Below, one piece after another: positions 4,479-40,146 of a stretch of DNA of 40,146 bases. Location of the stretch: the NCBI GenBank assembly GCA_964522555.1, contig CAZFWK010000001.1, positions 10,114-50,259 of the forward strand, in the 5' to 3' direction. This DNA comes from an uncultured Peptoniphilaceae bacterium. GTDB taxonomy: Bacteria; Bacillota; Clostridia; Tissierellales; Peptoniphilaceae. A program made the position numbers and the translations under genes. Positions within the stretch are counted from its first letter, which is position 1; every line of letters starts with the position of its first letter. The notes beneath the pieces were generated by a model, which saw only the letters and a program-made list of their open reading frames with translations, did not search any database and was not told the origin of the DNA.

Positions 4479-4745
4479 AAAAAAAATCTTCATCTCCAAT
4501 CCATTCCGGATTAGGGACGAAAGATTCTCCGCGGTACCACCCTAATTATGGCAATTGCCATCACTCAGGCCTATCAGCCTTAGTCCTGATAACGGGGACA
4601 TCCGTTTTCTTCTACCCTTTCGTTCGAAGAAACAGCCACAGAGTGATAGATTTTCCTTTGGAACTGTCGACTTTCACCTACAATCGACTCTCTGCGAGTT
4701 CACCGGTAAGGAGCATCCTCTCCGTGCAAGCCTTTCAAATACTTT
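4479..4745 (-). promoter_or_regulatory. T-box riboswitch leader of the ilv operon; candidate specifier AUC (Ile)
   Basis: The minus-strand RNA contains AGAGAG and GGTGAAAG Stem I elements and the T-box sequence AATTAGGGTGGTACCGCG (plus 4531..4547). These are followed by a terminator hairpin and a U8 run (plus A-run 4479..4486). The specifier loop reads ...AAAUCU-AUC-A just before the lower Stem I helix (CACGGAG / CUCUGUG). Confidence 0.85.
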
Positions 4746-9733: not shown

Positions 9734-10450
9734 CTAACGTTCATACTTCACTTCAATTTTCTCAATAATCGCTCTAGTCTGTTCCCTTTCAAGATTAGAG
9801 TTTACAGTAATCACGATACCATTCACTTCCCAAATAACAGTAATGACATTGTTCTTTTTGTATTCATGCACCTCACTCCCCTTTAAATCATAAACATCAT
9901 ACTCGGCATCTTCAGAGTCTACTGCCCCTACATATCCTTCCGCGAAATAACCTCTTATTCTGATATAACTCGATTTGTTCTCGTACGACAATATCGATAA
10001 GTTGCCGTGATGGCTAGATTCTGTGATTGTAAATCCTTCAGGGATTTTGGATAATTCGATCTCAAATGACTTGGCTGTATCATAGGTGTTAGATGATTCA
10101 TCCAGAACCCAAGTAAATGAAGTATAACTATCAAGAACCTCAATAATAGCTGTATATATTCTATTGCCGATTGCAAAAGCTCTATCCGGACCTATCGCAA
10201 TCGAAAAGACTAGGAGAACAGCAGCAACGAAAGGAAGTGATCGTCTCAAAAAAGGCACAGTCTTATGCTTAGATTTCCCGTTTTTTTCATAATTATAGTC
10301 CTTCTCCTTGCTTCGTAACTCCAGAAATAAGCTATCCATCTTACTATTGAATTTCGGTGAGAAGACTTCATCATAATTTAGAGTTTTTGAATTGGCTTCT
10401 CTTCTTAGTAGAAGTTCCTTCGCATCTTCTTCCTTCCATTTCGATTTCAT
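9734..10450 (-). CDS. putative anti-sigma factor / DUF4367-like single-pass membrane protein
   Basis: 238 aa. It overlaps the sigma gene stop by 4 nt (ATGA). It has a charged N-terminal cytoplasmic part, one TM helix (LPFVAAVLLVFSIAIG), and an extracellular C-terminal domain ending ...VITVIWEVNGIVITVNSNLEREQTRAIIEKIE, which is typical of DUF4367 partners of ECF-like sigmas. Confidence 0.6.
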   Translation of the reverse strand: MKSKWKEEDAKELLLRREANSKTLNYDEVFSPKFNSKMDSLFLELRSKEKDYNYEKNGKSKHKTVPFLRRSLPFVAAVLLVFSIAIGPDRAFAIGNRIYTAIIEVLDSYTSFTWVLDESSNTYDTAKSFEIELSKIPEGFTITESSHHGNLSILSYENKSSYIRIRGYFAEGYVGAVDSEDAEYDVYDLKGSEVHEYKKNNVITVIWEVNGIVITVNSNLEREQTRAIIEKIEVKYER

Positions 10451-10959
10451 CGCTCATCCTCCTCGTGAACAGCCTTTCTAAGTTTTTCCAGTGCCCTTTC
10501 CATCCGTTTTCGTACCGTCGGTTCCGCTACTCCCATCATTTGTGCAATCTCTCGGTATGAATATCCGTCCAAAATTTTAAGGCGCACTAATTCAGCAGAT
10601 TTCTCATCAATTAGAGATAAATAGTACTCCGCACTTTCTGCACCATGCCATTCCGAGTAGTCATCCACGGCTTGTTCCTTTCGGAAAATATATAGCTCTT
10701 GTTCTTTGCTATTCTTTCTCCGATAATTTATGGCGATGCGCTGCGTGATTCGCCCGATATAGGCGCGGAGTGCAAATTCATTGTCGAGACGAATGTTAGA
10801 GTATTGTTCCCACAAAACAATCACTGTATCGTGAAGGATGTCCTGCACATTGCCTTCATCTCTCACAACGCGAAAGGCAATCGCACTCATATAAGTATGA
10901 TATTTATGATAAAGAAACTCGATCATGTCGGTTCTGGATTTCTTATCGAAGTCGGTCAC
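10447..10959 (-). CDS. ECF-type (sigma-70 family, group 4) RNA polymerase sigma factor
   Basis: 170 aa with a GTG start (an alternative ATG lies 11 codons in). Region 2-like VQDILHDTVIVLWEQY and a region 4 HTH (LDGYSYREIAQMMGVAEPTVRKRMERALEKLRK) are present. Confidence 0.85.
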   Translation of the reverse strand: MTDFDKKSRTDMIEFLYHKYHTYMSAIAFRVVRDEGNVQDILHDTVIVLWEQYSNIRLDNEFALRAYIGRITQRIAINYRRKNSKEQELYIFRKEQAVDDYSEWHGAESAEYYLSLIDEKSAELVRLKILDGYSYREIAQMMGVAEPTVRKRMERALEKLRKAVHEEDER

Positions 10960-11293: not shown

Positions 11294-11938
11294 CTACTGT
11301 TTTACCCTCCCACGCTTCAGAGAAATCACGAAAATCAGGATCATAAAGACTCCCCACAAAATGCTGGTGAATGCGTGGTGGATGGATACTTGATCATAAA
11401 ATTCGTAGAGCCCATCCCTGTATGGATTCCACGGTAGCGTTTGAAAGAGGCGACCGAAACCGTGAACGAGCAAAAAAAGAATGGATGCAAACAATGTCCA
11501 GGTAATTTCTTTGGTCACATACATCGCAAAAAACCCCAGCCATCCGTACAGCCAGCAAAATAAAAAATAGCGAGCTACAAAGCCGATTCCTGCCGGACTA
11601 AAGGGTGCAAAGAAGACAAACGCCACTGCAAAACCGGTGATAGCGAAAAGAAGGATTAAGCCAATCGTTCTTGCAATCCACCAAATGGGTTTCGGGTGCC
11701 AATGGAAGTGAAGCTCTCCTCCTTGGGATGAGACCGCCTCTCGCAAAAAGAGTACAGGCCATACGCCTGCGAAGACCGGCATCACGTTACTCACGTACGA
11801 TAAGAGGGGCATAACTGGATACTCGGACCGGATGATAAAAAGCTGCAGCCATAACCAAAAAGGCGCAAAAAGGATCCCATAGAGGGGGATCCACTTCCAT
11901 TTGCCAAAAGTCTCAAAACAGAGTTTAATCTCACGCAT
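11294..11938 (-). CDS. hypothetical polytopic membrane protein (possible ABC-2-type permease partner)
   Basis: 214 aa with about 6 hydrophobic, Trp/Phe-rich segments. Its start overlaps the ABC ATPase stop by 8 nt. Confidence 0.55.
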   Translation of the reverse strand: MREIKLCFETFGKWKWIPLYGILFAPFWLWLQLFIIRSEYPVMPLLSYVSNVMPVFAGVWPVLFLREAVSSQGGELHFHWHPKPIWWIARTIGLILLFAITGFAVAFVFFAPFSPAGIGFVARYFLFCWLYGWLGFFAMYVTKEITWTLFASILFLLVHGFGRLFQTLPWNPYRDGLYEFYDQVSIHHAFTSILWGVFMILIFVISLKRGRVKQ

Positions 11939-12741
11939 TTTTGATCAGCGCCAGGTAAATGTCTTCAAGATTCGGTTCTACAAGAGATACCCCTTCAGGA
12001 AGCGGGTTGCCATAGATTCTGCAGATGAGTCCATTTTCTTCCGTTCGTACCTGCAAAACTTGTGCTTTTTCTTCCCATCTTGGAAGTGCTTCCGGTGCAA
12101 TTAGAATCTCTCCTATACAAGAATTCATTTGGCTTCGGAGTGCTTCTTTCGTTTCGTGAACCAATACCTTTCCCTGATGGAGGACCGCGATGGTTTTTCC
12201 AATATGGGCTACATCTTCGACGATATGGGTGGACAGGATGATACACCGATCCTGTCCCAATTCACCGATAAGGTTTCGAAGTTGCACCCGTTCTTTCGGG
12301 TCGAGTCCGACTGTCGGTTCATCCAGAAGGAGTGTTTTTGTATCTCCAACGAGCGCCTGGGCAATTCCCAGGCGACGAAGCATTCCACCGGAAAGATGCC
12401 TGACTCTTTTTCTTCTTTCATCGGTCAGATTGACCTGCGTAAGAACTGTCTCAATTTCTTCCTGGCGCGCTCCTTTAAGTAAGGTCACGTATTCGACAGC
12501 TTCTTCCACTGTCAATTCTTCCATCATCCGAAAGTGTTGCGGAAGATAGCCGGTAGCCTTTTGGCCACCCGCAATTTTCAGTTTTCCGGTCGCGGGGATG
12601 AGTCCCAAAACACAACGAAACAGGGTCGTCTTTCCCGCTCCGTTGGGTCCGAGCAGCCCATGTACTCCTTTTCCAAATTCCAGTGTGACCTGATCCAGTA
12701 CCTTTTTTCGATTTCGTCTCAGTGTTCAGTTTTATGTTCAT
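11931..12741 (-). CDS. ABC transporter ATP-binding protein (DrrA/ABC-2-type), reading frame broken near the N-terminus
   Basis: The frame that is open from 12725 to 11931 encodes KKVLDQVTLEFGKGVHGLLGPNGAGKTT (Walker A), LSGGMLRRLGIAQAL (signature) and LLLDEPTVGLD (Walker B). That frame has no ATG/GTG/TTG before the Walker A motif. A typical ATPase start, ATG-MNIKLN, is at 12741 but in a different frame. The listed ORF 11931..12608 starts after Walker A. Confidence 0.75.
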
Positions 12742-13635
12742 TTCTTCCCACTGAAACCGGGGTGACTCGTAGGGGATTTCTTCCCGGTCGTAATAAAATT
12801 CGTTATCTTTCTTCACCGGGGTGAGAACGAGATCTCCTTGACCCACCGTATATGAAATGGGACGCTGCATGGTTGTAATTCCCGTAGAGACGAGGACAAC
12901 ACCGAGTGCAGATAGCAATATGGCTTTTTTCTTCTGACTCTTAACAAATCCGCATATGGGAATCAGGCTGACCGCCAACCAAAAGAGTCGTTTGGACCAC
13001 TGGCCCATCGATAAATCAAATCCTTGCAGTGCATTAAACATCTTGTGCGCGCCAGGCAATCCAAAGTCGGGTGCTAAGGGCAGATCAACCGACAAGAGCT
13101 GGCCAACCGCAACAATCCAAGGTGCTCCTAAAGAGCCCAGAAAGAAACCGATCACGGCAGCCAGGAGATAGCCTTGTACGAGCGGCACTTTTCTGCCAAG
13201 AGCCCATCCAATATTTCCCCCGATGCACATGGGCAAGAAGTAGTATAAGAGTAGGGCGATAAGTGATTGACCTAAAATATGGACCGGATGATCGCTCCAA
13301 AAGTAGGCAAGTGTGGTCATCCCCATCATACAGAGCACGCAAAAAAGGAAAGCCAGATCTAAGGCAAAGGTCTGTGTCCAGATACGAGCTTCTTCTTTTT
13401 TGCAAAGACGAATCCATTCCTCCGCACCCGAAACCTTTTGGGAAGCTCCGAACCGATACCCCGAGAATACCGCCCAAAAGATTGCCAGCTGGTGTAAAAA
13501 TGTATACGCGTGAAAGACTGTGATACTCTCCAACCAAAGACCCAGTCCGGTGCTCAAAATGATGAGAATCACAAAAACGCGATTGATGATATCATTTCGA
13601 ATTCGCTTAAATTCCAGCTGTAATAGGGTGAACAT
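12475..13635 (-). CDS. polytopic membrane protein (ABC-2 permease-like); the ORF as it stands reads through into the ATPase gene out of frame
   Basis: An AAGGAGG RBS precedes the ATG at 13635. MFTLLQLEFKRIRNDIINRVFVILIIL... has multiple TM segments up to about 12830. After ...RFQWEE the same frame contains the ATPase-like start MNIKLN (12741) and then a low-complexity Arg/Gly-rich tail. That tail is the ATPase gene read in the wrong frame. Confidence 0.6.
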   Translation of the reverse strand: MFTLLQLEFKRIRNDIINRVFVILIILSTGLGLWLESITVFHAYTFLHQLAIFWAVFSGYRFGASQKVSGAEEWIRLCKKEEARIWTQTFALDLAFLFCVLCMMGMTTLAYFWSDHPVHILGQSLIALLLYYFLPMCIGGNIGWALGRKVPLVQGYLLAAVIGFFLGSLGAPWIVAVGQLLSVDLPLAPDFGLPGAHKMFNALQGFDLSMGQWSKRLFWLAVSLIPICGFVKSQKKKAILLSALGVVLVSTGITTMQRPISYTVGQGDLVLTPVKKDNEFYYDREEIPYESPRFQWEEMNIKLNTETKSKKGTGSGHTGIWKRSTWAARTQRSGKDDPVSLCFGTHPRDRKTENCGWPKGYRLSSATLSDDGRIDSGRSCRIRDLT

Positions 13636-13704: not shown

Positions 13705-14346
13705 TTAATCCCATAAAGTTCCTCGTCCACTGCATCCCTTCGTTTCAATATTCACCGGATCTAACTCCAAAAGATGAGACCCATAGACAAATGCAGGAAT
13801 TTTATATCTTGTGGAACGATTGTCACCCGGAACAACACGTAAGGCGTCCACTTCTATATCCAATGTAGTCAATTTTCGACGATGAATTAAAATTCCAAAC
13901 AACGCTCTAACAGAACTCGCGTCGTTATTTGATAAAAAAGCGAGGAATATCACAGTGAGCCGTCTCTCTCCGCACATTTGCATAGCTAGTGTTACCGTTG
14001 ACGTGCAAACTAATTGAATATTCTCTTGATCAAACGAACTGCACTCGCGTACGATCGCCATTGAACCCATAATAATCAGAACCACAGTCACTGTCTTGAG
14101 ATAATAACCCATCTTTGTCTTACAGTGATTATTGTCTAATGGGCTTACAAATGAATACAGCCCTGTAATAAGAACTAACATTTCTTTTACCAGATCCATT
14201 TTACCTGCTATTAACAGTACAGGTGCAATAAGTGCGAGCCTAAGTAAAGTTGCCTTGTATCCATAAACAGCAATTCGAAATTCTCTTTCATCAATCACAT
14301 GACCTATTTGAAAAGGTATGTACCTGTTAATAATCGGATTTTTCAT
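13705..14346 (-). CDS. AgrB-like membrane protein (putative autoinducer-peptide processing enzyme), divergent
   Basis: The listed ORF is 13705..14379; I prefer the ATG at 14346 (MKNPIINRY...). A gapless by-eye alignment with S. aureus AgrB (from memory) puts EFRIAVYGYK on QFLQVRLGMQ. It also puts the His of ...PLDNNHCKT exactly on AgrB His77 (same 45-residue spacing from the conserved Gly). About 4-5 TM segments. Confidence 0.45.
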   Translation of the reverse strand: MKNPIINRYIPFQIGHVIDEREFRIAVYGYKATLLRLALIAPVLLIAGKMDLVKEMLVLITGLYSFVSPLDNNHCKTKMGYYLKTVTVVLIIMGSMAIVRECSSFDQENIQLVCTSTVTLAMQMCGERRLTVIFLAFLSNNDASSVRALFGILIHRRKLTTLDIEVDALRVVPGDNRSTRYKIPAFVYGSHLLELDPVNIETKGCSGRGTLWD

Positions 14347-14473
14347 TTTCCAACATCTGTCGAATATGGAGTCTCTCATCGTCTTTAAACCAGATCAAAA
14401 AGCTACCGCTATGAACTTCTAACGAGGCAAGTAAGATCCCTAAACTTAGGAATGCTCTTGCAATAGTTTTCAT
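14327..14473 (-). CDS. 48-aa AgrD-like autoinducing-peptide precursor candidate (not in the ORF track)
   Basis: AAGGAGG (14487..14481), a 7-nt spacer, then the ATG at 14473. Product: MKTIARAFLSLGILLASLEVHSGSFLIWFKDDERLHIRQMLENEKSDY. It has an amphipathic N-terminal leader, a hydrophobic core SFLIWF and an acidic/charged C-terminal tail. It overlaps the AgrB-like gene start by 20 nt. Confidence 0.45.
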   Translation of the reverse strand: MKTIARAFLSLGILLASLEVHSGSFLIWFKDDERLHIRQMLENEKSDY

Positions 14474-14492
14474 CTACACACCTCCTTGTATG

Positions 14493-14544
14493 ATCATATG
14501 GTACCATGAGATAAGCAACAAGAGACAATTCATGTCTAAACGGT
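14493..14544 (-). promoter_or_regulatory. sigma-70-type promoter for the peptide/AgrB-like/ABC unit, with one LytTR-consensus-like 9-mer upstream
   Basis: Minus strand: TTGTTG (14521..14516), a 17-nt spacer, then TATGAT (14498..14493). ACCGTTTAG (14544..14536) fits the published LytTR site pattern [TA][AC][CA]GTTN[AG][TG]. I found no convincing second repeat. Confidence 0.4.
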
Positions 14545-14589: not shown

Positions 14590-15813
14590 TTATGGTATTT
14601 TAACGGTAGTACGATAGGTGTTGCCCCCAATCTGAATCGATAGATTCCCGTCATGTTTTTCAACGATTCGCTTCACGCTTTTCAGCCCGATCCCCCTGTT
14701 GGGATCTTTGCTACTATTTATTAACTTATCTTCGACCCACCTATTTTCGATTTGGATTGTGACCATCTGTGGAGTTTGTTTCATCTTGATTACCAGTATT
14801 CTCTCTTCAATGGACACTTGAAGTAACGCGTTCATCGCATTGTCCAAAAGATTTCCGATCAAAACAGCTGTATCCGTTGCATCCATTGGGATTGTTTTCG
14901 CGACACGCATATCGATCTGCAAATTTTCCGGGTAGAACATCGATGGATCAATTTTTTTATTCATCAATAGATTGACTCGTTCATTTTCACTGTAGTTATG
15001 AAACTTATGATTATCTACACCTTCTAATAGTTCTTGGATTTTTTCTGTTCGTTCTGATTCTTGGATTGCTAAGAGCCCCAATAACATATTGCTTATATCA
15101 TGTTTATACCTTCGAATTTCGCTTTCATAATGCGCGAATTGTTTATAGTATTGCTCCTGCGCTTCCAATCTTAAAGCCAACTCAAAGGTGCGCTTTTCGC
15201 TCGTATATTGTCTTGTCGAAAACTCAAAAGCAATAAACACCAAGACCGAAAGCAGCAAAAGCATCATCTCTTGAAAGAACCATCGCAAAGTTGGTAGTTC
15301 AGGTGCGTTTACATCGGGAGAAAATAAAAACACATAGCTGGTTATGAGTGCCCATACTAATCCCATAACGAACTGCAATCGATTCGGGATGATTTCTTCT
15401 GACCTTTTATGTTTGACTATGATGATTTGGATAATAACAATACGTAACAACGAGGAGGTGAAGCCGTGAAAATAATAATTCGATAGCATGTCCTGCCCAA
15501 GTAAGTTAAAGATCTGAAAGAGAACAAGCTCAAATGCCATCGAAAGACCGATTAAAGCAATGATATACTGAACTCGCTTTTTCCAATGTCCTTCAAATAG
15601 AAAACTAATCCCCAATAACAAAAGTGTCATTGCAATACTGTTTGCTATAGGATTTCGCCATACATTTATATAAATGAGTCCAAAATATAGACATACCGTG
15701 ATAAATGCAACTCGAATGAAAGGAAATCGAGTCTCTCCTAAATACATGGTAAAGTACCGAAAGATAATGTAAAACTCTGCTAAGTTGTTCACGCTGTGAA
15801 ATAGAAGTTCCAA
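14590..15813 (-). CDS. AgrC/ComD-like (HPK10, GHKL) sensor histidine kinase
   Basis: 407 aa with a TTG start after GGAGGAG. The N-terminal half has about 6 TM helices. H-box RRYKHDISNML, N-box IGNLLDNAMNAL and G-box NRGIGLKSVKRIVEKHDG are present. Confidence 0.85.
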   Translation of the reverse strand: MELLFHSVNNLAEFYIIFRYFTMYLGETRFPFIRVAFITVCLYFGLIYINVWRNPIANSIAMTLLLLGISFLFEGHWKKRVQYIIALIGLSMAFELVLFQIFNLLGQDMLSNYYFHGFTSSLLRIVIIQIIIVKHKRSEEIIPNRLQFVMGLVWALITSYVFLFSPDVNAPELPTLRWFFQEMMLLLLSVLVFIAFEFSTRQYTSEKRTFELALRLEAQEQYYKQFAHYESEIRRYKHDISNMLLGLLAIQESERTEKIQELLEGVDNHKFHNYSENERVNLLMNKKIDPSMFYPENLQIDMRVAKTIPMDATDTAVLIGNLLDNAMNALLQVSIEERILVIKMKQTPQMVTIQIENRWVEDKLINSSKDPNRGIGLKSVKRIVEKHDGNLSIQIGGNTYRTTVKIP

Positions 15814-15826
15814 TAAATCTCCTCCT

Positions 15827-16546
15827 CTAGTAATATGCAGTGAATGCCTTTCTTAGATGCTTGACCCCTTCTTCGCTAGCTTCTAGGTCACGACCGTCCC
15901 TGAGTCGTACAATAATCTTGAAAGTGGGGTCTATTTGGGGGACAATTCTAGATACATGAGACACTTGAACATATGTGCTTCGATTAATTTTGATAAATAG
16001 ATTCGCATCTCCGATTCTATTGACGATACTTTTAAGGCTTTCTGTAGATTCGAATAAATCTCCATCCAGCGTATGAAGTACACTTTTTCTCGATTCTCTT
16101 TCAATCGATACGATTTCGTCAATTAAGAGAACTATTTTTTGATGGTTTTCGATTATTTCTAAAGACCGTCTTGGACCTGATTTCTTTTTGAGTACCTCGC
16201 GTAAAACCGATTCGAGCTCCTCTCTATCAATGGGCTTAAGAAGATAGTCCAGAGGGTGCGCTTTGTAGCCTTCCAATGCAAATTCTCGATGCGAGGTAAC
16301 AAAAACAATTTCGCTTTGATGGTTCGTCTCTCGGATTCCCTTCGCAATAGTAATGCCATCCTCTCCGGGCATTTCGATATCCAGAAGATACAGGTCATAT
16401 TCGCTAACCGTTCTTTTTCGATCTAGCACATTAGCATTACTAAAATCATGAATCATTAGCGATTCAATTGGGAGGATTTCTTTTATAAGACATCGTATTT
16501 GGGTGCGGAAGACTTCTTCGTCATCCAGAATTGCAATGCGTAGCAT
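15827..16546 (-). CDS. LytTR-family response regulator (AgrA-like)
   Basis: The listed ORF extends to 16669, but the ATG at 16546 follows AGGGGGAA and gives the canonical receiver start MLRIAILDDEE...LLDIEMPGEDG...LLKP. The C-terminal LytTR domain reads IVLLIDEIVSIERESRKSVLHT...FIKINRSTYVQVSHV. Confidence 0.9.
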   Translation of the reverse strand: MLRIAILDDEEVFRTQIRCLIKEILPIESLMIHDFSNANVLDRKRTVSEYDLYLLDIEMPGEDGITIAKGIRETNHQSEIVFVTSHREFALEGYKAHPLDYLLKPIDREELESVLREVLKKKSGPRRSLEIIENHQKIVLLIDEIVSIERESRKSVLHTLDGDLFESTESLKSIVNRIGDANLFIKINRSTYVQVSHVSRIVPQIDPTFKIIVRLRDGRDLEASEEGVKHLRKAFTAYY

Positions 16547-16734
16547 GATATTCCCCCTAGATAATTTTTGATCCGAAAACACTACTGCTAGTATATCACA
16601 GTAACCCGATAAGAATTTCCCGCTAGAATTCCAATTCTTCCTATAACTATTTAATTCACATATTTCCATAAAAAGAAGCCGTACTTTTTCCGTGTTAATT
16701 CTTGGAAAGAGTTCGGCTTCATTCGAAATATTTA

Positions 16735-16977
16735 CTATCCTCCGCCCAGTGAGCGAAGGATTAGGATATGATCCCCCTCCTCAAGCGTATCGCCTGGCGA
16801 TAGGGGTTGTGATTGTCGTAGTACTGTATACAAGTTTGCCTTGTCGTCCCATAGGGTGCCCTTTTCGAAGAGTTGGGACAGCAATTCTTGGACGGTCGCA
16901 TGGTCGGCGAGCGTTTCTTCCGATTGTCGGTTTTTCGCACTTGCCATAATACCCAGGCATTTTACGGAGACTTTCAT
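16735..16977 (-). CDS. MoaD/ThiS-family ubiquitin-like sulfur-carrier protein
   Basis: 80 aa ending ...ILILRSLGGG (C-terminal Gly-Gly). Its start overlaps the AOR stop (ATGA). Confidence 0.7.
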   Translation of the reverse strand: MKVSVKCLGIMASAKNRQSEETLADHATVQELLSQLFEKGTLWDDKANLYTVLRQSQPLSPGDTLEEGDHILILRSLGGG

Positions 16978-18827
16978 TTTTTGTATAAGTCGGCTTTGAC
17001 CTCTTCCAGTCCTCCGATCTCGTCCAGGAATTTTTCCGTGGGGACGCCGGTGTCCGGGTCGTATCCCATGGTTTCGAAGAAATTCCTTGCCAAGAGCTTT
17101 GTGTCGATGTCGACTCCTTCAAGCGGGCCACTTTCTAGCGGAGGGTGTCCGACTGCGCGTTCTGACATCGTCATATCTTTCGGATAAATCCCCTCTCTTA
17201 GATTGAATGCGTGGCGCAGCGTGTAGATCCGTTTGCCTGTGTTGTTGTATTCTTCCGTTGATCGTACTCTTCCGGTAATCGCTTGATTCAGAAGCTCGTC
17301 GATCCCGGGTGGCGCGCAATATGCCGCAAAGAAGCACAGCCCGCTGCAGTTTAGCATTTCGATATGCGCCACGCTTGCGACGTCCGCATCGCCTGTATTT
17401 TCGTAAATGTATTTGGACGGGTCGCTTGATAGCATCTGCGTAAATCCGGCGCCTCCCTTTACATGCCTTCCCGGGCTCGGGTCGTATTGATAGGTTCTGG
17501 CGACACCCGGTGCAAAGCGCGCGTCGTGCATCGGAAGCTCGATTCCCGAGGCGGTTTGCAGATACTCTTCCCCTTTTCCAAAGTGTTTGGCGGCGTAGGC
17601 GGATCCGTTCGCCATAATTGCGCCGACGCCTTCACATGCAGCCATCTTTTCCGTAATGGCGACGATGGCTTCCGCGTTCCCCCATGTAAGGTCTATCCCG
17701 TCGAGCTCCTCTTTCGATAACATGCCGTTTTCGTAGCACTCCATCGCCCAAGCGACGGTCATCCCGGCTGAGATCGTGTCAAACCCGGCGCGATTTCAGA
17801 TTTCGTTGCACTTTAGCATCGCGTGTTCGTTGCCGTTTAGGATGGTGGAGCCGAATGCGGCCGCGGTCTCGTATTCGGGGCGTTCCGTCTCTTTCATCGG
17901 CCAGGGGCCGTCATTCACCTCGTATGTTGCACCGCAGCCTAAAGGACAATTGGCGCAGTTGTATTTTTTCTTCTTATAGCGGTCGAGGTTCATCGCCGAA
18001 AAACGCTCCGCGCTTTCCTCCCCGTAATCGGAAATGCCTACGCCTTGCCAGTTTTTCACAGGGGAATCTCCGCTTAAGGCGGATGCCGCCGTCATCGCAC
18101 CGGTTCCGTACTCGCCAAATGCGAGGGCCATGTCTCCCGTCTTTACGACCTCGACAATGCCTTTGTTCAGTTCCGTAATGCGGTCTTCGTCGTCGACTTC
18201 GATTTTCCCGGTTCCGTATACGACAACCGCTTTCAGCTTTTTCGAACCCATCACAGCACCCAAACCGCCCCTCGCCGGAGCTCGATGCCCGTCGTTGATC
18301 GGGCAGGAGATCAGCGACTCCTGTTCACCCGGCTTTCCGATCGCCATCACGCGCGCTTTCGGCTGTTCGACTTCGTCTTTCAAGATCGGGATGATCTCTT
18401 TGCAGTCGATCCCTGCAAGATGTGAGGCTTCTCGAATTTCCGCTTCTCCTTCGTGGATCCACAGATACACCGGTTTTTCGGAGATCCCCGAAATAAACAC
18501 GCCGTCGAAGCCCGCCTTTTTCAGCTCGGGGCCGATATAGCCTCCGGAGTTGGCGTCGTTCCACCCTCCGGTAACGGGCGATTTACAAACGACCGCGTAT
18601 CTTCCGCTGAAGAAACTCCGCGTTCCCGTGGTCGGTCCCGTCACGATTCCGAAGATATTGTCCGGTCCCAAGGGGTCTGCCCCGGCTGGCATTCTGTCGT
18701 ACAATACTTTCGCTCCGATCCCGTAACCGCCGACATACTTTCTCGTCCACTCCTCCGGTAGCGCCTCTTTCGTGATCGCTCCTGTCGTCAGGTCTACAAA
18801 CAATAACTGTCCCGCATACCCTTTCAT
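16974..18827 (-). CDS. aldehyde:ferredoxin oxidoreductase (tungstopterin AOR family), interrupted by a single in-frame TGA at 17796..17798
   Basis: The two listed ORFs (17796..18935 and 16974..17762) are in the same frame. The joined reading is ...HAMLKCNEI-TGA-NRAGFDTISAGMTVAWAMECYENG.... The N-terminus MKGYAGQLLFVDLTTG (ATG 18827 after AAAGGAG), the 4Fe-4S motif CANCPLGC, and the GFDTIS and MLNCSGLC motifs are AOR hallmarks. Confidence 0.85.
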
Positions 18828-18852
18828 TTTGCTTCTCCTTTCATGATTGGGA

Positions 18853-18974
18853 CGCAAAAAAAGCCATGCGCGTCCCTTGGGGCACATGACTCCTTTCCGA
18901 ACACGGGAGGCGAGCGGATTGCTCCACTCACCCATAGTCCGGCATAACCTTTCAGGCTAAGCCGAATCGGAGTA
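18853..18974 (-). promoter_or_regulatory. Moco/Tuco-type riboswitch candidate with intrinsic terminator
   Basis: The minus-strand RNA is ACUCCGAUUCGGCUUAGCCUGAAAGGUUAUGCCGG...GCUCGCCUCCCGUGUUCGGAAAGGAGU. P1 is ACUCC/GGAGU, and the GCCUCCC and GGAAAGGAG elements are as I recall them for the Moco motif. A hairpin CAUGUGCCCCAAGGGACGCGCAUGGC plus U7 follows (18853..18888). It sits upstream of the AOR and MoaD-like genes. Confidence 0.6.
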
Positions 18975-18983
18975 GTGTGTTGT

Positions 18984-19012
18984 ATTATACTATAGTTTAA
19001 CACTATATTCAA
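18984..19012 (-). promoter_or_regulatory. sigma-70-type promoter for the riboswitch/AOR unit
   Basis: Minus strand: TTGAAT (19012..19007), a 17-nt spacer, then TATAAT (18989..18984). Confidence 0.55.
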
Positions 19013-24429: not shown

Positions 24430-24645
24430 AAAAAAAGCCCCTGCATTGCAGGGACGTGTTTACACGCGGTACCACCCAAATTGCATGAAATTCATGCCAC
24501 TCGTCATGGATAAGGGCATGACCCCCGCTTGCCTACCGATTCAGCAAACGCGCAGAGAAAGGAGTAGATTTTGCTTAATTGACCGGCTCGCACCTTCCGC
24601 CGGCTCTCTGAACAACGCCACAAAACCGCTTTTCTCTCTTGCAAA
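24430..24645 (-). promoter_or_regulatory. T-box riboswitch (leuA-proximal copy); candidate specifier CUC (Leu)
   Basis: Minus-strand RNA has CAGAGAG...GGAAGGTGCGAG Stem I elements and a specifier region AAAAUCUA-CUC-C. The T-box sequence AATTTGGGTGGTACCGCG is at plus 24465..24482. The terminator is GTCCCTGCAATGCAGGGGC plus U7. Confidence 0.8.
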
Positions 24646-24648
24646 TAC

Positions 24649-24860
24649 AAAAAGTCCCTGAGTTTCCTCAGGGACGAATTACCGCGTTACCACCCAAATT
24701 GACTGCACAGCAGTCCTCTTCTCCTATCGTTAACGGGACGAACCGTCCACCCCTACAAAATTCAGGGTGAAAGCCGGAAAATGAGTAGCTTCTCGCTTTG
24801 CCACAGGCTCGCACCGACCGCCTGCTCTCTTTAGACTCTACGTAAAGCGCTTTTTCCGAT
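24649..24860 (-). promoter_or_regulatory. T-box riboswitch (distal copy, in tandem); candidate specifier CUC (Leu)
   Basis: Minus-strand RNA has AAAGAGAG...GGTCGGTGCGAG. The lower Stem I is GGAAAA/UUUUCC, with the specifier loop ending GCUA-CUC-A. The T-box sequence AATTTGGGTGGTAACGCG is at plus 24683..24700. The terminator is GTCCCTGAGGAAACTCAGGGAC plus U5. Confidence 0.8.
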
Positions 24861-24885
24861 TGCTGTAAAATCGAACTTAAGTGAA

Positions 24886-39976: not shown

Positions 39977-40146
39977 GGGGGCGAATATGGTTTCGACGGG
40001 GATGTTGAAGCAGGAGTAGCGAGTCGTAGACTCCAAACTACGTTAAAAGTGGAACACTAAATTAAACGCAGAAGATAACAACTTCGCATTCGCGGCTTAA
40101 TGCCGCTGTCTCCCTCACTTTCCCGTAGGGTGAGCTGAGGCATCAA
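39977..40146 (+). ncRNA. ssrA: tmRNA (ssrA), 5' portion; continues beyond the window
   Basis: GGGGGCGAATATGGTTTCGACGGGG is the acceptor/TLD 5' half. The tag reading frame GCA GAA GAT AAC AAC TTC GCA TTC GCG GCT TAA (40068..40100) encodes AEDNNFAFAA*. Confidence 0.9.

Follow-up and report, generated by a model that had tools for sequence, protein, structure and literature searches.

The question raised by this locus is whether a 48-codon open reading frame (ORF) that lacks cysteine altogether can be the gene of an AgrD-like signal-peptide precursor, and whether its product could still be matured in the genome that carries it. The ORF is present on the minus strand at 14327..14473 of a 40,146-nucleotide stretch of DNA, called the window throughout, from an uncultured Peptoniphilaceae bacterium (NCBI GenBank assembly GCA_964522555.1, contig CAZFWK010000001.1, positions 10,114 to 50,259 of the forward strand). 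An initial annotation, made from the sequence letters, had described the ORF as AgrD-like with a serine in place of the ring-forming cysteine. In our study, the small gene was found to be real and to have homologues in syntenic relatives. The explanation that we favour, with a probability of roughly 0.55, is that it is the genuine precursor gene of a divergent Cys-free agr-type cassette, that an AgrB-like His/Cys dyad would process the peptide in intact relatives, and that the production and export arm appears to be broken here.

The ORF was found to start with ATG at 14473-14471, to continue with 47 more sense codons and to end with TAA at 14329-14327. Its product, MKTIARAFLSLGILLASLEVHSGSFLIWFKDDERLHIRQMLENEKSDY, contains no Cys and five Ser. 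A Shine-Dalgarno (SD) sequence, AAGGAGG, is present at 14481..14487 on the minus strand, followed by a 7-nt spacer (TGTGTAG) and the ATG. In the ribosome-binding site, the spacer, the 48 codons and the absence of Cys, the minus strand reads exactly as the initial annotation had described it. Sites that match the SD core over 6 nt or more and have an ATG 4-10 nt further on number 14 on the two strands of the window, and 11 of them begin ORFs of at least 200 amino acids (aa). When the 941 ORFs of the window were scored with a profile built from three relatives' peptides alone, the 48-codon ORF obtained 25.4 bits (E = 4.4e-7), followed by a runner-up ORF with 6.2 bits; the highest score among 2000 shuffles was 6.7 bits.

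An exhaustive phmmer search with the neighbouring membrane protein found three remote relatives (P0003, P0004, and P0005). The relatives' loci fall into two lineages, one comprising L011 (a metagenome-assembled genome of an uncultured Peptoniphilaceae), L012, and L013 and the other L014-L017; with the window lineage included, the family consists of three deep lineages of uncultured Bacillota. The depth of the relationship is deduced from the kinases and regulators of the cassette, which are only 36-41% identical among the three lineages. In both other lineages, a homologous small ORF of 47-53 aa follows a LytTR regulator and a GHKL_5 kinase and overlaps the start of an AgrB-like gene. The products of these small ORFs are MKGKITHYILKFGLLLAMLEVSLPKKYIWFEDTESDETRQRLHMIKERDHAER; MIKRFSHAVIRLGVVQVMTEGKLPAKYFWHLDPETDNVEYLLRDEDK; and MIKKLLLAVIRFGVILAVIEVSLPGKYFWYTDPETDKIRHLLRHGYK. 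Each of the relatives' peptide genes is preceded by an SD of its own and runs 14-20 nt into the AgrB-like gene. In the alignment of five peptides, the window peptide showed no internal gaps across the leader, the core and the proximal tail, and M1, G12, E19, W28, D31, E33, and L41 were invariant. The core LPxKY[I/F]W was kept between the two other lineages, whereas the window contains SGSFLIW, with Ser/Phe in place of Pro/Lys. The proportion of nonsynonymous differences (pN) was lower than that of synonymous differences (pS) in all peptide comparisons, for example 0.34 against 0.66 between L011 and L015B. Because homologous ORFs are present at the same position, the leave-one-out profile recovers the ORF, its SD is strong and pN is below pS, the 48-codon ORF is judged to be a genuine, conserved small gene. 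The conservation that the initial annotation had named as a check was thus found, with the ORF intact in the syntenic relatives.

Beyond these lineages the searches yielded little. When the peptide and the AgrB-like protein were used as queries in word-indexed protein searches, each retrieved itself only, and an alignment-based repeat brought no gain. A metagenome scan with the AgrB-like alignment gave no match; with the kinase alignment it gave three kinases of 22% identity, in whose loci no AgrB-like gene and no related peptide were found. A viral-contig scan and tblastn searches of plasmids and phages gave no match. Even with exhaustive searches of proteins, genomes, metagenomes, viral contigs, plasmids and phages, the cassette was found in the three lineages only.

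Paralogous precursor genes were observed in L014-L017, where a second small ORF follows the AgrB-like gene, so that the latter is flanked by two of them (9871-10014 and 10837-10980 in L015; also in L014, L016, and L017). The L015 paralogues, pepA (...KLPAKYFWHLDPE...) and pepB (...SLPGKYFWYTDPE...), showed a pS of 0.33 and a pN of 0.23. In the L011-type peptide cluster (P0023-P0028), the population variants were confined to the leader (L16V) and the tail (R39I, E52K), and an allele cut to 39 aa was also seen; the core SLPKKYIWFEDTESDE was invariant in the cluster.

The cassette of the window reads, on the minus strand, LytTR regulator, kinase, peptide, AgrB-like protein, 386-aa membrane ORF, ABC ATPase and 214-aa membrane protein. 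The response regulator (239 aa; 15827..16546) contains the Response_reg (PF00072) and LytTR (PF04397) domains and is 41% identical to the regulators of L011 and L015. The AgrC/HPK10-type histidine kinase (407 aa; 14590..15813) contains HATPase_c_5 (PF14501, E = 3e-18) and is 36-38% identical to those of L011 and L015. An AgrC/AgrA-like two-component pair is therefore present in the locus. In the relatives, the intact cassette was found to contain the LytTR regulator, the kinase, the small ORF and the AgrB-like gene. Four more conserved genes come after these, in the order secreted protein (129-132 aa), large membrane protein (645-663 aa), ABC ATPase (274-282 aa) and smaller membrane protein (211-213 aa). 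The last gene of the cassette in the window, at 11294..11938 on the minus strand, was assigned by synteny with L013 and L015 only, as no significant sequence match was found.

A promoter had been claimed at 14493..14544, upstream of the peptide gene; it was not detected by a consensus scan of the minus strand with a 9-of-12 threshold, which found nothing sigma-70-like in the 116 nt that separate the kinase gene from the ORF. The best -10-like hexamer in that interval, read by eye, was TATGAT at 14498-14493, 5 nt upstream of the SD, and it looks too near the SD to act as the promoter of the ORF. A repeat scan upstream of the ORF gave no convincing LytTR operator and no motif in common with L011 or L014; it found a single 9-nt repeat pair, 63 nt apart, with one copy within the kinase gene. 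At 16672-16723, between an 80-aa gene (16735-16977) and the response-regulator gene, a 20-nt inverted repeat with 85% complementarity and a 12-nt loop was observed; it resembles a terminator, and the cassette transcription unit would then begin with the regulator. An extracytoplasmic function (ECF) sigma factor and a DUF4367 protein (putative anti-sigma) are encoded at 9734-10959 on the minus strand, adjoining the cassette downstream. A similar pair in L015 (1740-3007), 26-29% identical to that of the window, was found upstream of the cassette together with another ABC module.

In size and three-part layout the window peptide resembles AgrD. Residues 1-20 were hydrophobic (mean H 0.41), with a moderate helical hydrophobic moment (muH 0.31), and the tail from residue 30 on was found to contain many D, E, K, and R residues. 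For S. aureus AgrD, muH was 0.52. The leader, the short core and the acidic tail of the initial annotation were all present, while the amphipathic character that it gave to the leader was only moderate. The layout follows that described for AgrD, in which E34 and L41 are needed for processing (PMC10482373). As for an AgrD, an AgrB-type gene adjoins, and the stop of the peptide gene overlaps the start of the AgrB-like gene in three lineages. No match was found between the window peptide and the Pfam and NCBIfam models at E up to 1, and the alignment to AgrD family models that the initial annotation had proposed gave no match for any peptide of the family. The peptide is not a member of the curated AgrD family; judged by its context and likely function, it is very probably an AgrD. 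The AgrD-like reading was thus borne out for the gene, the layout and the agr-type setting, but not for the curated models and not for the ring.

In AgrD the ring position holds a Cys, or rarely a Ser, as a rule five residues ahead of the cleavage site. The residue that would form the ring was found to be missing from the family. None of the five peptides contained Cys, and no column contained a conserved Ser or Thr. The column of Ser24, which is five residues before the invariant Trp and had been proposed as the ring former, was occupied by S/K/K/A/G, of which Ala and Gly are unable to close a ring. The Ser22 column contained S/L/L/L/L and column 21 contained H/S/S/K/S. Since Ser24 varies and the family conserves neither Cys nor Ser in any column, the Ser-lactone reading is unsupported. 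A double-glycine pheromone of the ComC/BlpC type was ruled out as a candidate by the lack of any conserved GG, GA, or GS in the alignment. The literature was also searched for AgrD precursors without Cys, with no useful result. Ser-lactone autoinducing peptides (AIPs) are known from S. pseudintermedius (RIPT[STGFF]), C. difficile agr2 (NSA[SSWVA]) and GBAP, and the D-before-B order is known from C. difficile agrD1B1 (PMC12312760); these two features are already documented and so are not new.

The AgrB-like membrane-protein ORF (213 aa; 13705..14346, minus strand, ATG at 14346) shares its first 20 nt with the end of the peptide ORF. In phmmer, its product matched P0003, P0004, and P0005 with E-values of 1e-7 to 4e-5. 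P0004 and P0005 scored 36 and 37.9 bits, respectively, with the Pfam AgrB model (PF04647) and were above its threshold, and P0003 scored 16.9 bits. By this chain of matches the window protein is a remote AgrB homologue, and its link to the family is transitive because the protein itself is below the Pfam threshold. For the comparison of catalytic residues, an S. aureus AgrB reference sequence was used, which matched the full Pfam AgrB model with 114.6 bits and had H77 and C84 in place. These two residues are the invariant catalytic dyad of AgrB (PMC10482373). The His was kept in the window (His74) and was invariant among the window protein, the relatives and S. aureus AgrB. In the column of the catalytic Cys (S. 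aureus C84, His+7), P0003, P0004, P0005 and S. aureus contained Cys, whereas the window alone contained Tyr (Tyr81, codon TAT, 14104..14106, minus strand); the motifs were HCKTKMGYYLKT in the window and HCETRIRCYLKT in the relatives. The codon TAT is one transition away from TGT, and Tyr81 was present in 5/5 protein variants of the population. Going by this alignment, the window protein lacks the catalytic Cys of AgrB. An AlphaFold2 model of the protein contained six helices, but its mean predicted local distance difference test score (pLDDT) of 45.5 was too poor for a fold search; no AgrB homologue was found in the PDB.

The 3' end of the AgrB-like gene was found to be altered as well. Its last 48 codons (13708..13851, minus strand) encode a segment with homology to the C-terminal end of the 129/132-aa secreted protein, which has a gene of its own in the relatives, with family positions 83-129 matching ORF residues 166-213, both C-terminal (hhalign probability 87.7%, E = 3.5e-6; BLASTP E = 0.007). 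Because these last 48 residues align end-to-end with the C-terminus of the neighbour's protein, the match indicates that a deletion fused the AgrB-like gene to the remnant of its downstream neighbour. The secreted protein of about 130 aa (L011 6579-6968, L015 11252-11650; window remnant 13708-13851) was observed to end in G-x-x-G-x-(L/I)-W and showed a weak FNIII-like match (PF24801, E = 6e-4) that was below threshold.

Further lesions were found downstream. The 386-aa membrane-protein ORF (12475..13635, minus strand) matches the relatives' 645-663-aa protein over about 300 residues of its N-terminal membrane part only. It has no counterpart of the C-terminal half and continues, out of frame, into the ABC gene. 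The ABC ATPase gene (11931..12741, minus strand), which is intact in L013 and L015 (274-282 aa), contains a frameshift near codon 7, as seen by tblastn, three-frame translation and the DNA sequence itself. The frame that begins with the ATG encodes MNIKLN; the remainder of the gene, TLRRNRKK...GLLGPNGAGKTTL (Walker A), is read in a different frame and lies beyond three stops. The AgrB-like and ABC lesions were present on all contigs seen. The kinase of the window was intact; in L001 and L008 the loss of one G at 15790 on the minus strand, in GCGTGAAC, leads to a stop at codon 11. This site is not a homopolymer, and the N-terminus that is lost there is invariant across the three lineages. In L010, an A deletion at 14601 (codon 405) gives a 416-aa form of the kinase. 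Kinase forms of 385, 355, 346, and 295 aa were found in the 90% identity cluster, and shortened forms were common among the contigs of the cluster. The only single-nucleotide polymorphism within the small ORF was 14336 C>T in L008, which is synonymous in the peptide and replaces Pro4 by Leu in the AgrB-like frame that overlaps it; as one event it carries no statistical weight. Ten Logan contigs with the peptide were 99.9% identical to the window, and this diversity of about 0.1% gives no power to test selection. Because the catalytic Cys of the AgrB-like protein is replaced by Tyr and the cassette contains further lesions, a mature cyclic product is unlikely in this genome, and the window copy is best seen as a degenerate, probably non-functional, member of the family.

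In the explanation that we favour, the intact copies would work as follows. The AgrB-like protein would be translationally coupled to the peptide, whose hydrophobic leader would keep it at the membrane. The His/Cys dyad of the AgrB-like protein would then cut off the acidic tail beside the invariant Trp28, with the invariant D31, E33, and L41 serving as recognition residues. The freed core, of the consensus LPxKY[I/F]W, would be exported and then sensed by the kinase. With neither Cys nor Ser conserved in the family, a canonical five-residue (thio)lactone is an improbable product. In the genome of the window, the 48-aa peptide would most likely be made and not matured, an intact remnant within a decaying locus.

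Several observations count against this explanation. All five peptides of the family failed to match the curated AgrD models (PF05931 and TIGR04223) at E up to 10, and the AgrB-like protein of the window obtained 11.9 bits (E = 0.15) with the Pfam AgrB model, the threshold of which is 23 bits. The clade contains a second conserved Cys directly after the His (HC motif), and the window keeps it as Cys75; the Tyr might be tolerated if the Cys of the HC motif is the nucleophile. The short 386-aa membrane protein could be a lineage-specific form instead of the result of a deletion. The ORFs of the peptide, the kinase and the regulator are intact in the window, and the peptide was identical on 29 contigs, which at a diversity as low as this does not show selection. 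Finally, just three lineages were to hand.

A bolder form of the explanation is possible, and we hold it tentatively. It says that the three lineages are an undescribed Cys-free branch of AgrBD, in which an AgrB-type His/Cys peptidase (HC.T+..CY.KT) would convert precursors with the LPxKY[I/F]W core into a product that is not a (thio)lactone but perhaps a Lys-derived lactam or a linear peptide. The branch would have a conserved eight-gene cassette that includes a secreted protein and an ABC-type membrane module of its own. The window copy would then be a decaying relic or a re-tooled variant.

It is rather doubtful that AgrB-type cyclisation plays no part at all, with the peptide acting as a linear secreted pheromone, either only cleaved or exported by the neighbouring ABC system, or as a small membrane protein that modulates the kinase directly. 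A family without a conserved ring nucleophile would suit such a peptide. Its most conserved stretch, LPxKY[I/F]W with D31 and E33, fits a recognition motif, the hydrophobic N-terminal segment is no more than moderately amphipathic, and the cassette contains a conserved ABC ATPase and membrane proteins. The HPK10/LytTR systems ComCDE and BlpCHR use linear peptides as well. However, the overlap with an AgrB-family gene is kept in three lineages, which points to an enzyme-substrate pair. The double-glycine motif is not conserved, and the ABC protein of the window, besides being frameshifted, shows an ATPase domain only, with no sign of a C39 peptidase transporter.

Working quorum sensing in this genome is a clearly poorer prospect. 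Here the adjacent AgrB-like enzyme would make a Ser-lactone with the ring S24-F-L-I-W28 that activates the kinase-regulator pair, the Cys of the HC motif being the nucleophile. The Ser is placed five residues ahead of the invariant Trp, the AIP CVGIW of L. plantarum likewise ends in I-W, and precedents for such lactones exist in S. pseudintermedius, C. difficile and GBAP (PMC12312760). The AgrB-like protein retains its His and the clade-specific Cys75, and the kinase, the regulator and the peptide are intact in the window. Against this stand the variable Ser24 column, in a family with no other conserved Ser or Cys column, and the Tyr at the C84 equivalent, which is Cys in all relatives. There is also the damage to the locus, with a fused or truncated 3' end in the AgrB-like gene, a frameshift in the ABC ATPase gene and null alleles of the kinase segregating in the population. 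S. aureus AgrB failed to process a Ser-containing AgrD (PMC10482373), and the use of Ser would therefore need an adapted, active enzyme.

That the ORF is a chance open frame in the 5' untranslated region of the downstream membrane-protein gene, as the initial annotation had allowed, is hardly credible: it is short, the window holds many chance ORFs of 30-60 aa and no curated family matches it, but this is contradicted by homologues of conserved length and position in lineages with kinases and regulators so diverged, together with the profile score, the strong SD and pN below pS.

The cassette resembles the staphylococcal agrBDCA system (PF05931 and PF04647; TIGR04223) in its precursor, which is of 40-50 aa there and has a hydrophobic leader, a short core and an acidic tail. 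It also resembles it in the adjoining, probably polytopic, membrane protein of the AgrB family, in which the catalytic His is kept, and in the presence of an HPK10 kinase and a LytTR regulator in the locus. In the tail, E33 and L41 are 8 residues apart, loosely like E34 and L41 of AgrD, which are 7 apart (PMC10482373). Unlike agrBDCA, the peptide has no AgrD model match and the family has neither Cys nor a conserved Ser. The order of genes is regulator-kinase-D-B, with D overlapping B, instead of B-D-C-A, and the core, instead of being the most variable part, is the one best conserved between lineages. The AgrB proteins of the clade are of 173-178 aa with an HC...C motif, the equivalent of Cys84 in the window is Tyr, and four more conserved genes follow.

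The AgrD of S. pseudintermedius/intermedius, Agr2 of C. difficile and FsrD/GBAP of E. faecalis are similar in that the ring nucleophile of those precursors is not Cys, and the GBAP ring of 9 residues shows that larger rings exist; it was to such lactones that the initial annotation had compared the peptide. These Ser-lactone systems have Ser at a fixed position and keep the Cys of AgrB/FsrB, whereas in the present family Ser is not conserved and in the window the enzyme Cys is lost. The D-before-B order is shared with C. difficile agr1 (agrD1B1), and the AIP CVGIW of LamD558 from L. plantarum lamBDCA ends in I-W, as in ...FLIW of the window (PMC12312760, PMC12405376). Both of these systems use Cys, unlike the peptides studied here. 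Loss-of-function quorum-sensing alleles segregate within species in the agr-defective variants of S. aureus. The species of the window is similar in having segregating kinase frameshift alleles and a damaged production arm; it differs in that the AgrB-like and ABC lesions, deletions included, are fixed on all contigs seen.

Genome mining for AIPs relies on the Pfam AgrB (PF04647) and TIGR04223 AgrD models (PMC12180512) and also presumes a Cys or Ser ring residue. The cassette slips past such filters, as its precursors are Cys-free and match no AgrD model, and 2/4 of its AgrB-like proteins are below the Pfam threshold. If the intact relatives are active, AgrB-type enzymes would be able to make a class of product that has not yet been described; clostridial AIPs that proved to be homodetic cyclopeptides were an earlier surprise (PMC8251862). 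The window copy itself can be read as a quorum-sensing locus in decay, with fixed lesions in production and export, segregating kinase nulls and an intact precursor ORF. It also suggests that a perfect ribosome-binding site can make a small ORF appear functional when possibly it is not.

Some other features of the window were observed. An aldehyde:ferredoxin oxidoreductase (AOR) gene at 16974-18935 on the minus strand was found to contain an in-frame TGA at 17796-17798, in the context ...LKCNEI*NRAGFD.... In L002, of the same species, TGC (Cys) was present at this site and the 617-aa gene was intact. The TGA may be either a segregating nonsense allele or part of a selenocysteine/Cys pair; a check for a selenocysteine insertion sequence (SECIS) downstream of the TGA gave a hairpin no better than shuffles (z = -0.02) and thus no SECIS support. 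A molybdenum cofactor (Moco)/tungsten riboswitch (RF01055, 51.7 bits) was found directly upstream of the AOR gene, at 18874-18984 on the minus strand. Three T-box leaders were present on the minus strand at 4510-4737, 24447-24648, and 24667-24869, two of them in tandem, and the 5' part of a transfer-messenger RNA (tmRNA) gene at 39977-40146 on the plus strand, which is cut by the end of the window. The T-box leaders and the tmRNA fit a Bacillota genome.

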